A stretch of 57,230 nucleotides of DNA, filler included, from Bipalium vagum (GCA_037834085.1; 3 parts of 3 records of this genome joined end to end with filler, not necessarily neighbours in it); one strand, 5' to 3'; shown: positions 51,440 to 54,730, counted from the whole stretch's first letter. Made by a program: numbers and translations. The notes: generated from the sequence alone by a model not told the origin.

Positions 51440-52830
51440 TATATTTCAAGAAGTATCTTAATATATTTTCATTTGGTATTTTCATTTATATAGAGGTGAT
51501 ATTATTGGTCCACAGTTTGCAATTGCTGGTTTTGACCCTTTATTTAAATATATTCTTGTTATTGGAGCTGCAAATCTTAAATTATTTTCGTATACCACTG
51601 GTAAATCACTTGTGCATTGATTATATTGAGCTAATGATACTTTAATTTTTCTACACTGGTATCTGTACAGGGCTTCTCCCATGACTTTTCCAAACACTTC
51701 ATCTTGTAATAGGAATGGAGATGCTAATTCTGGATTTCCTGTTTCGAAAAGAAGTCTGCTTCTTAATATTTCCTGAGCCATTTTGCAATCGTTTAATATT
51801 GTTTCTTGATATACTTCTTTTAATCATGATATAAGTAGTACATTTTGTTGTTCATGTAAAGATTTAATTTACTATCTTTTTCTCTTGCCTTTTGTATTTG
51901 GTCAGTAGATAGGTATACAAACTGTATACTTTTATAATTTGTAGCATATATACAATATGGCTATATTTTAGTACAGTTTCTTTTCTTACTAACCGAATAA
52001 GATCTCTCTTTTCCTTTGTTATTAATATTACATGCGTATTTCTTATTTCTAATGGTGTTATTCTTGTTTTTTGTTTGGTATAACTTTCTAATTTTACTAT
52101 AGTTATGTGTTTCTTGCGCTGTGGTTCCTGATATTTCTGTAAAACGGATTTCTCTGAGAAATTTTAAATTACATCCTGAACTTGCTCTTGCCTTGTATAA
52201 AAGTGTACTTTCTTGTGTTACACATTGTCCTTTATTTAGATGACATGATGGTTTGCTTAATAATCTTTCTGTAGTTGTATCGAATGTTCCTTCATATTCT
52301 AATAATTCTATTCTATAGTCATCAATGGCTACAACATTACTTAATGTTTGTCCTTGAAAGATTACTGTTTTTCCTGCACAATTTCCTGCAGAATCTATTG
52401 TGCCTCTTATTACTGTTTCTTGCGTAATAGCATTTGCTTGTGTGATTAATGTAACTGTTTAATCGATTAATAATTTTCCATGTCTAAATACTGTTTCACA
52501 ATCTTCTGCTGATATTTTCATGGCTCTTGACATTATTGCAGTTTTTAGAATGGATGCATGATGTCTTCCTCCACAATAAAATCAAAAAGTAGCTTTTTGT
52601 CCTCTACATTCTTTAATTTTGGTTCTATAGTATTCTGTCTCCTGGTACATATAATATACTTTTTCGGTTTTTGTTATATTATCGGGAAATAATTCGGTAC
52701 ATTCACGTGTATCCTTTAGGGAATATATTCGTCCAAAGCTGGGATTGCTACAGTCATATACGGAGATTCCGTACTTTGGGAATAAGGACAAAAATGAATT
52801 GTATTATTAATAGCAATATTATGGTCGTAT
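51440..52830 (-). pseudogene. Chuvirus-like (Jingchuvirales G / class III fusogen-type) glycoprotein, decayed
   Basis: Signal-like IILLLIIQFIFVL, then VYDCSNP..YSLKDTREC..YQETEYYRTKIKEC..FYCGGRHHASI..SAEDCETVFRHG..IDSAGNCAG..CHLNKGQC..GEALYRYQC..QCTSDLPV..FAAPITRI..NCGPIISPLY; the Cys spacing matches chuviral G as recalled. Confidence 0.8.
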
Positions 52831-54730
52831 ATTGTGCATTGTTATCTCTTTTATATCTTAAATTTGAATCATTTAACTGACTGAATCCTTCTATGGCAAC
52901 TATTTTATCAACTAAAACCCATGCTACTTCTTGTCTTACTTCTTTTATAATTTTCTCAATTTCTTGCCCTTTTTTAACTCGTTGAATTCCTTTTATGATT
53001 ATCATTGATAAATTTGCTACTATTTTCCTTTTTCTAATCCTCCTTCTCTTTTTACTTTTTTCATTATTTTTTCTAAAGGATGTGCTTGTTGACTACTTAT
53101 TTCTAATCATTGTTCCACATCTTTTCTCATTATTTTTATGTCTTTATAAAATATAATATTCAAAATTATCAGGGCATGTTATTGATAAACCAGGTTCTAA
53201 TAATTTCATTAAACCTTTTACAATTCTTGTAATTTCTCCATCCTTTTCTTTTCTTAATTTTAGCTTTTCTTCTGGATTTTTAAGGATATTATCACTAAAC
53301 TGTATCAAATCTCCCATTGTTCGTATGACTGAATTCATTAACTCGTATATCACTGTAGTTGCACTTTCTGCCATGGTTTGTGGTTCTAGCTGTTTTTCCT
53401 AGATTTGCTTTATAGCCTTTATTATCAATATTCCTAAATCAAGTATCAGCCTTATTTTCTTGGGCTCTAATTCGTTTTGATATTTTGTCGTTATTTTTTC
53501 TAGCACTTTTTCGTAATTTTGTTCCTCATCTTCCAACCATTTATTTATTTTTGGTCTAAAATTTTTTATATAATTTCCAAAAGCCTTAAAATTAAAATCT
53601 TCCTGTTCCTTTAAAGGTAATTCTGATTTTATCCGTTTCATTAATCCTTGTACTTTTCTTTTAATATCTTTTTTTTCATTCCATCCTTTTTCTTTCATTT
53701 CTATTGCTACCTTTCTAACAGCTTTTACGGCTTTTACTAATTGTTTTTCTCTTTCTATATGTTTTTCTGATGCTTGTTCCATTCTTGATAATTTTTTCTT
53801 TTCTATTTCTGGTTGTTTATTTTTTATCAATTTTGTAAATGAACTTTTTTTGCAAACATCCTCCTCTGAATCCGTCATAACAACTTCTTGTTCTATTTCT
53901 TGGCTAGTTCTTGCTATTTTTTGCTTTACTTTTACTGATTTTTCATCTTTATTTCGTTCTTCAGTGGATGTCGTTTCCTCCCATGCTTTTACTAACATCT
54001 CTATTGATGTTGATACTTCTGTGAAATCTGGTGATTTTTCACTTTCTTCATCTATATCTGTACTCAATTGTGTCATCGTTGTTTCCTGGGAACATTTTAT
54101 ATTTGTTATTTCTTTTTCCATAGCTTGCATGTTTCCTTTTCCTTTTCCCTTTCTTCCAAGCTTCCTGTCCATAAATACTGTGCTACTACTTCCTTTATTT
54201 TTTTGGTGTACAACCACAATCTATGATATATTCATTATCATCTACTCTTCTTCCCATCAATGTTAAGTGGATTAATGCTTGAACATCTGGCATTTGTTGT
54301 ATAAATTGTCTAACTTGTTGCACCATTGTATTTATTCCAAAAATATGTTTTATTACTTTTTCATTTGGTAATAATAATTTCAGTTGTACTCCATTATATT
54401 TTTCAGCATTCTTTCGAACACATTCTCCATATTTTTGTAGTATGCAGTGGATTTCTGTTTGACAAAGAGTGATTTCTCCACTCATTTTTCTTAGTTCCTC
54501 CATGATTTCTTCTAATGTATTCACAGATATAGTTAAAGTTACTATTTCAGCCAAAATTTCCTTTAGTTTGTCAGGATTCTTTATTTTCCAAAATATTTTA
54601 CTTTTATAATTTTATTTGTTTTTTTCTTCATACAATCTTTTAATTCTTCATTGTTGTGTATGGATCGACCATTATGATAGACGGAAATTCGTCCGCCAAT
54701 TGGATGCTTACTTTGTAATTTTTTACCACT
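52830..54730 (-). pseudogene. N-terminal part of the same decayed polyprotein: ubiquitin-like domain(s) + K/E-rich coiled coil + RYKR
   Basis: Consecutive same-strand ORFs (54554-54195, 54217-53399, 53374-53144, 53005-52754) linked by small frameshifts or stops; beta-grasp-like VQLKLLLPNEKVIKHIFGINTMVQQVRQFI..LTLMGRRVDDNEYIIDCG. Confidence 0.6.

Follow-up and report, generated by a model that had tools for sequence, protein, structure and literature searches.

The locus occupies the end of a 57,230-nucleotide stretch of Bipalium vagum DNA (hereafter the window) and consists of a decayed minus-strand coding path (54748-51485, 1,086 codons in a three-frame translation) and of related coding remains upstream of it (57094-56236), with zinc knuckles and a further ubiquitin-like domain, that the initial annotation missed (Table 1). 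The path joins five frame segments containing 0, 1, 3, 3 and 0 stops, against 2-68 in the two alternative frames of the same segments; this scarcity of stops marks it as a real but decayed gene, in agreement with the frame of roughly 1,100 codons first proposed. It holds at least four frame changes (near 54612, 54195, 52775 and 51825), and its translation, read by eye, contains further probable ones near 54110, 53150 and 53025. The leader and the glycoprotein that follows it were presumably continuous across the frame break that separates them.

Table 1 Features of the locus in window coordinates, from the upstream end of the minus-strand reading
Feature	Position	Strand	Evidence
Two decayed CCHC zinc knuckles (Gag nucleocapsid-like), frame change between them	56991..57094	-	Translation; Pfam zf-CCHC
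Decayed ubiquitin-like domain, copy A	56595..56810	-	hhalign, tblastn
Helical remnant repeating the stretch 56914-56801	56236..56592	-	tblastn self-match, 42% over 38 aa, E 0.005
Stretch of about 1.5 kb lacking coding signal, between the coding blocks	54750..56230	.	No Pfam (six frames), no Rfam match
Likely second half of another ubiquitin-like copy (B)	54612..54700	-	By eye; tblastn against copy C, E 0.92, weak
Four-helix bundle	54405..54611	-	Four helices in model; conserved in relatives
Ubiquitin-like (beta-grasp) domain, copy C	54198..54404	-	Profile, PDB sequence matches, structure matches
Acidic low-complexity spacer and K/E-rich helical region	53399..54190	-	Sequence; no homolog found
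Helical region at the position of the relatives' Bcl-2-like domain	52870..53398	-	Weak profile alignment, 53041-52931
RYKR	52847..52858	-	Present; N-terminal to signal helix
Internal signal-peptide-type hydrophobic helix, in the leader's frame	52772..52828	-	Hydropathy; like helix in relatives
N-terminal two-thirds of a Monjiviricetes-type (gB-like, class III) fusion glycoprotein	51485..52764	-	PF24664; phmmer relatives; tree
Likely end of a DNA transposon, taken to be of Tc1/mariner type, where the glycoprotein breaks off	51319..51470	+	TA then CAGT, short internal inverted repeat

The surroundings of the element are AT-rich animal DNA (16-39% GC per kb over the whole window) with short-intron genes (a KH-domain gene near 4.5-5.4 kb, NUDIX and an oxidoreductase) and numerous DNA-transposon and GIY-YIG remains. 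The KH-domain gene, which extends over 4400-9900 (+) with introns of ~45 nt, is presumably similar to Bicaudal-C. Decayed ORF pieces at 50013-50950 (+) have no Pfam match; they include a hydrophobic stretch rich in glycine, part of which recurs at 48379-48458 (76%). N-filled assembly gaps with a short linker lie at 15607-15706 and 41440-41539; neither interrupts the context of the element, which sits on the final contig piece.

The glycoprotein corresponds to the chuvirus-like class III protein initially annotated, and matches Pfam family PF24664 twice above the curated cut-off (E value of 8.4e-22 over profile positions 20-213 of 653, and of 2.6e-16 over positions 327-436). It carries three stops and one frame change and ends at ~51480, at about two-thirds of its length and without a membrane anchor, a truncation overlooked in the initial annotation; the putative transposon end found there is single-copy in the window. 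A PDB sequence search with the glycoprotein piece yields no relative, and a word-based search for homologs among longer proteins yields none either, a weak negative.

The signal helix, also correctly noted at first, is the sole strongly hydrophobic 19-mer in leader and glycoprotein (mean hydropathy 2.41) and directly precedes the glycoprotein, with a frame break between the helix and the mature protein. Relatives show a similar hydrophobic helix followed by small residues and then x-x-YDC/FDC, the pattern expected for signal peptidase. The RYKR motif, originally described as furin-type, is indeed present; however, an R-x-K/R-R motif occurs in 0 of 16 relatives over the 62 residues preceding the glycoprotein and RYKR lies N-terminal to the signal helix, so that it is not a conserved furin site. 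It would reside on the cytosolic side of the signal, beyond reach of lumenal furin. The processed precursor proposed initially is thus retained as one precursor with an internal signal, but not with furin as its processing route.

No protease, RT or integrase is detected by Pfam in the three minus frames of 41.5-51.4 kb or in the plus frames, nor a capsid domain in the window; the frames scanned on both sides give no match to a viral polymerase or nucleoprotein family, and no repeat (LTR) pair flanks the element within the window. With its frames broken, without membrane anchor, pol or LTR pair, and cut at ~51470, the present copy is dead and cannot produce an envelope, which confines the initially suggested enveloped mobile element to ancestry. 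In a sequencing-run lookup, one run contains 36% of the query words, and no RNA dataset is found among the runs listed as containing such words. Locus scans return nothing from viral contigs or prokaryote genomes nor, with the window's own sequence, from metagenomes.

Leader and upstream block

The leader opens with a module composed of the four-helix bundle and ubiquitin-like copy C, which bears out the ubiquitin-like domain of the initial annotation. A module profile built from five relatives picked by eye, the window excluded, scores bundle and copy C at 45.7 bits, against 4.9 at most in 100 shuffles. When 152 relatives' proteins are compared with the window, the only match outside the glycoprotein at E ≤0.01 is that of P0009 with the helix-plus-ubiquitin-like piece (29% over 130 aa, 54578-54198, E value of 2e-9). 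A five-row alignment including the window ORF matches ISG15 (E value of 8e-4), ubiquilin and SUMO among PDB sequences, and 53 of the 60 PDB rows listed, including the first 17, are ubiquitin-like by name or known fold. The model of the module (pLDDT 75.8) shows four helices and a beta-grasp domain. All 50 of its structural matches cover residues ~70-137, with Z values of 5.5-6.9, in a range below 8 where matches are common, and r.m.s.d. values of 2-3.5 Å, and nearly all are ubiquitin-fold entries; Foldseek retrieves nothing at E ≤0.001 in PDB or viral libraries. Folding of the module from a single sequence is uninformative (pLDDT 39.5). A word-based search among longer proteins returns only P0008 and P0021, both of which trained the profile, and as leads only, atlas look-ups return ubiquitin/SUMO-like clusters at 0.79-0.82 for the module and nothing named for P0084. 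In all, the module is found in seven relatives (P0008, P0009, P0019, P0021, P0024 in part, L001 and L002). Up to three ubiquitin-like copies are present in the window, compared with one in relatives. A likeness of the helix bundle to TFIIS-N is unsupported, the best PDB matches being mitochondrial ribosomal S15 (E value of 0.002 with a three-row profile), which are taken as chance.

Downstream of the module, the leader is rich in lysine and glutamate (K+E of 26% over 54190-52772), consistent with the K/E-rich helical region first described. The comparison with the 152 relatives' proteins and a word-based search with leader residues 120-488 reveal no homolog of the spacer (54190-53399), the word-based result being a weak negative.

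The upstream block is likely part of the same element. Its second knuckle matches Pfam zf-CCHC at an E value of 0.014, under the cut-off. Copy A aligns with module alignment A1 by hhalign (probability 73%, pairwise E value of 3e-5) and with the ubiquitin-like stretch of L002 by tblastn (E value of 0.015), and its HMM score of 4.0 bits is within the shuffle range. The helical remnant shows no significant similarity to the helix of the module. The 1.5-kb stretch that separates the two blocks has no second copy in the window; a UTR, a piece of LTR and an insertion are candidates for its nature.

Relatives and their accessory domains

A phmmer search with the first glycoprotein piece, its stops read through as X, retrieves 234 proteins at E ≤0.001, of which 150 are listed; six of the ten best matches are proteins of 1,130-2,855 aa with an internal glycoprotein. 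Of the 150 listed, 28 were scanned, a selection made on length or on an internal position of the match, with three stand-alone proteins as controls. All 28 carry PF24664; five also carry RT and RNase H and four an integrase, always downstream of the glycoprotein, several have aspartic proteases, and Gag zinc knuckles occur before the glycoprotein. Two more relatives with pol, P0156 (4,844 aa) and L001 (3,426 open codons), bring to seven those with RT and RNase H after env. Families specific to BEL/Pao are absent from the nearest relatives scanned with Pfam at E ≤0.001, which speaks against a BEL/Pao element. The RNase H and H2C2-integrase families, in established Pfam usage, point to relatives of Ty3/gypsy type.

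In relatives, a single frame runs from Gag through the accessory domains and the signal to Env, and on to protease, RT, RNase H and integrase. Across relatives, the order in detail is Gag zinc knuckle, then the bundle with its ubiquitin-like domain and the Bcl-2-like domain, then signal helix, glycoprotein and anchor, and finally several aspartic proteases followed by RT, RNase H and integrase. Env lies in frame between gag and pol in P0019, P0023 and L001; the window has broken frames and no pol. Six module-bearing relatives are uninterrupted through to the glycoprotein. In L001 and L002, both outside the training set, module and Bcl-2-like domain precede the glycoprotein within a single frame, which is interrupted by one stop in L002; no LTR pair is found for L001 within 12.9 kb.

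In a quick tree of 79 rows, for which 78 of 152 matches were kept (start within 45 residues of that of the query, at least 330 aa), the window falls inside a 17-row set (SH-aLRT support of 96), whose other members are 12 polyproteins, L002 and three fragments with starts internal to the glycoprotein. This set is apart from most stand-alone glycoproteins of 600-700 aa, rows that bear no element names. The end branch of the window is long (1.08).

Several relatives have features of their own. P0019 is a 2,627-aa Gag-Ubl-Env-Pol polyprotein that NCBI lists as hypothetical and assigns to a metagenome bin of Flavobacteriaceae, a record that likely represents animal DNA inside a bacterial bin. P0156, P0009 and P0010 display tandem aspartic proteases (up to seven matched stretches in P0156), matches to ankyrin and C2H2 zinc fingers, and long tails that follow the integrase. 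Downstream of its pol, L001 has a second ORF (L001:10617-12107) with a weak DEDD exonuclease match (RNase_T, E value of 1.4e-5). The distant match P0147 has three zinc knuckles that precede, in frame, a signal and a glycoprotein of the same family, and it may represent a gag-env fusion of separate origin. We take its knuckles to have a BEL/Pao look.

Eight relatives (P0007, P0008, P0017, P0021, P0084, P0086, L001 and L002) possess, ahead of the signal, a Bcl-xL-like domain that terminates in a GGW-type motif, and four relatives combine it with the module. A profile of the first six matches Bcl-xL with a best E value of 2.6e-5, and the best 60 of 192 rows retrieved for this domain are all Bcl-xL or Bcl-2. 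In the window the same profile scores 3.3-8.2 bits at 53041-52931, values equalled by 1-72 of 1,000 shuffles depending on the piece, and this stretch is not the top-scoring one in six-frame scans. The domain is not detected in the window by hhalign, and frame switching gives no better score than a single frame. By its position and this faint alignment, the region 53398-52870 is tentatively read as a likely diverged, broken Bcl-2-like copy. The initial reading of the whole leader as a coiled coil is accordingly not upheld for its last part, which sits where relatives carry this domain.

The last helix of the bundle (54452-54417) is BH3-like. A relaxed BH3 pattern, defined after the sequences were seen, occurs in four of nine copies, which are kin to one another, with 0.14 expected from shuffles; a strict pattern with leucine and aspartate occurs in none of the nine. 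A three-row profile places the helix against residues 35-58 of the Bcl-2 homolog from African swine fever virus (E value of 0.08), a match that ranks below better, unrelated-looking ones. The likeness may serve as a lead only.

Interpretation and rival readings

The decayed fragment encodes a ubiquitin-like domain and a partial Monjiviricetes-type fusion glycoprotein, and in our judgement quite probably derives from a Burro-like LTR retroelement of the Ty3/gypsy group, in which a single polyprotein comprised Gag, accessory domains, Env and Pol; its Ty3/gypsy membership is drawn from relatives at 30-40% identity. Beyond the domain order observed in relatives, we infer topology, processing, fusion activity and any effect on cell death as follows. 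Gag and the accessory domains would be made in the cytosol, and the internal signal helix would thread the glycoprotein into the ER, where signal peptidase, not furin, would free its N terminus just before the conserved x-x-YDC. The anchor would then stop transfer and Pol would return to the cytosol; the element's own proteases would cut the remaining cytosolic domains apart, and the ubiquitin-like and Bcl-2-like domains may act on host protein turnover and cell death.

A counterpoint to the single polyprotein is the 1.5-kb non-coding stretch between knuckles and leader, which is absent from the single frames of relatives. It would be accommodated by a rearranged, non-autonomous member of the same family, in which an accessory ORF with knuckles and ubiquitin-like repeats is followed by an untranslated or LTR-like stretch and then by a Gag-less Ubl-leader-Env ORF expressed alone, an arrangement in line also with the lack of a capsid domain before the leader, with the excess of ubiquitin-like copies over relatives and with the upstream accessory ORF known from a Dugesia Burro-like element, as described in PMC6431247. 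However, an insertion and deletions in a dead copy give the same picture, and module-bearing relatives (P0008, P0009, P0019 and L002) have Gag features in frame; we regard this rearranged member as improbable.

That leader and glycoprotein were once separate genes, with env using its own start or a spliced RNA as in insect errantiviruses, is very doubtful. The frame break between signal helix and mature glycoprotein, and an ATG at 52839 in the glycoprotein's frame, would be compatible with such an organization, but ahead of the glycoprotein that frame is interrupted by three stops and lacks a hydrophobic helix, whereas the signal helix lies in the leader's frame, where the nearest Met is 59 codons upstream. 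The six relatives that read uninterrupted from the module to the glycoprotein also speak against it.

Since PF24664 spans all such proteins, the glycoprotein could in principle belong to a BEL/Pao element with a captured chuviral glycoprotein (Anakin type), to a non-retroviral chuvirus insertion or to a Maverick fusogen beside ubiquitin-like cargo. ORF pieces at 34145-34976 (-), some 17 kb off, which we presume to resemble Maverick/Polinton proteins, have no Pfam match at E 0.01. Nematode Mavericks described in bioRxiv 2022.07.12.499685 do combine a gB-like fusogen with cargo having N-terminal ubiquitin-like domains, but the signal of the Maverick fusogen is N-terminal in the same description. 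Nearest relatives have Ty3/gypsy-type RNase H and H2C2-integrase downstream of env, the leader module itself is present in polyproteins of Ty3/gypsy type, and the frames on either side lack viral polymerase or nucleoprotein matches, all of which renders this group of origins highly unlikely. A non-retroviral chuvirus insertion is disfavoured, as the signal is internal and the leader module is common to retroelement polyproteins.

Returning to the Burro-like polyprotein, a more speculative and rather unlikely extension is that Burro-type elements form a lineage spread widely among animals rather than a peculiarity of planarians, and that they bear ahead of env a three-part cell-death switch: a folded-away BH3-like helix, a ubiquitin-like domain that would control its turnover, and a Bcl-2-like domain that could bind the helix after cleavage of the precursor by proteases of the element itself. 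Should the BH3-like helix be real, envelope production would be linked to host cell-death control, a link that bears on the persistence of such elements in stem cells. A literature search on BH3-like and ubiquitin-like parts in such elements returned only PMC6431247; figures and supplements of PMC13524379 may say more.

Comparison with known systems

Anakin BEL/Pao elements and Jingchuvirales glycoprotein EVEs (Dezordi et al. 2020; 2023, as described in PMC10084718) share the same Pfam glycoprotein family, but the relatives identified here appear to be of Ty3/gypsy type with env inside the polyprotein and upstream of pol, so that BEL/Pao, the frame of reference of the initial annotation, is not supported. 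Troyka, as far as its description in PMC12440569 extends, is unrelated.

The GAG-ENV-POL gypsy elements termed 'ancient errantiviruses', with an HSV/gB-type ENV, are described from Nematoda, Bryozoa and Platyhelminthes (Chary and Hayashi 2026, PMC13524379), and according to that source the set includes the nematode elements of Sacco et al. 2022. They resemble the present system in their Ty3/gypsy pol with a gB-type env upstream of it (an order seen here in relatives), in an ectodomain behind a signal or membrane helix and, as described there, in a furin site that is not always conserved. The present copy differs in not being intact: its signal helix is present, its anchor was lost with the break at ~51470 and pol is absent. 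Ubiquitin is not mentioned in the main text of PMC13524379.

The arrangement that the initial annotation did not recognize is already in print for the planarian Burro elements, whose polyproteins, as described by Arkhipova and Yushenova (2019, PMC6431247), comprise Gag knuckles, MATH, Ubi2/SUMO-like and BCL2-like domains, env in frame, and pol. The same source reports that Burro env matches mononegavirus fusion glycoproteins and that decayed fragments occur in Dugesia japonica. A long LTR pair and a size of 25-30 kb would be further marks of Burro-like giant elements; an anti-apoptotic role of Burro1 via its RING-BIR region is given second-hand in PMC13465017. The window is likened to these giant Ty3/gypsy elements (Burro and GYPSM1) by their published layout. 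It shares with them CCHC knuckles, a ubiquitin-like domain and a mononegavirus-type env, and ankyrin repeats, another Burro feature, occur in the relative P0156. It differs by lacking MATH, BIR, ankyrin and pol, by a Bcl-2-like part that is barely detectable and by its up to three ubiquitin-like copies. The present copy is a fossil whose layout is in print, and its value is as a pointer to a diverse Burro-type cassette: in 11 relatives, with identities of 30-40%, env is preceded by the module, by the Bcl-2-like domain or by both, so that the diversity of the cassette exceeds that of the few planarian elements on record and its range may include other hosts.
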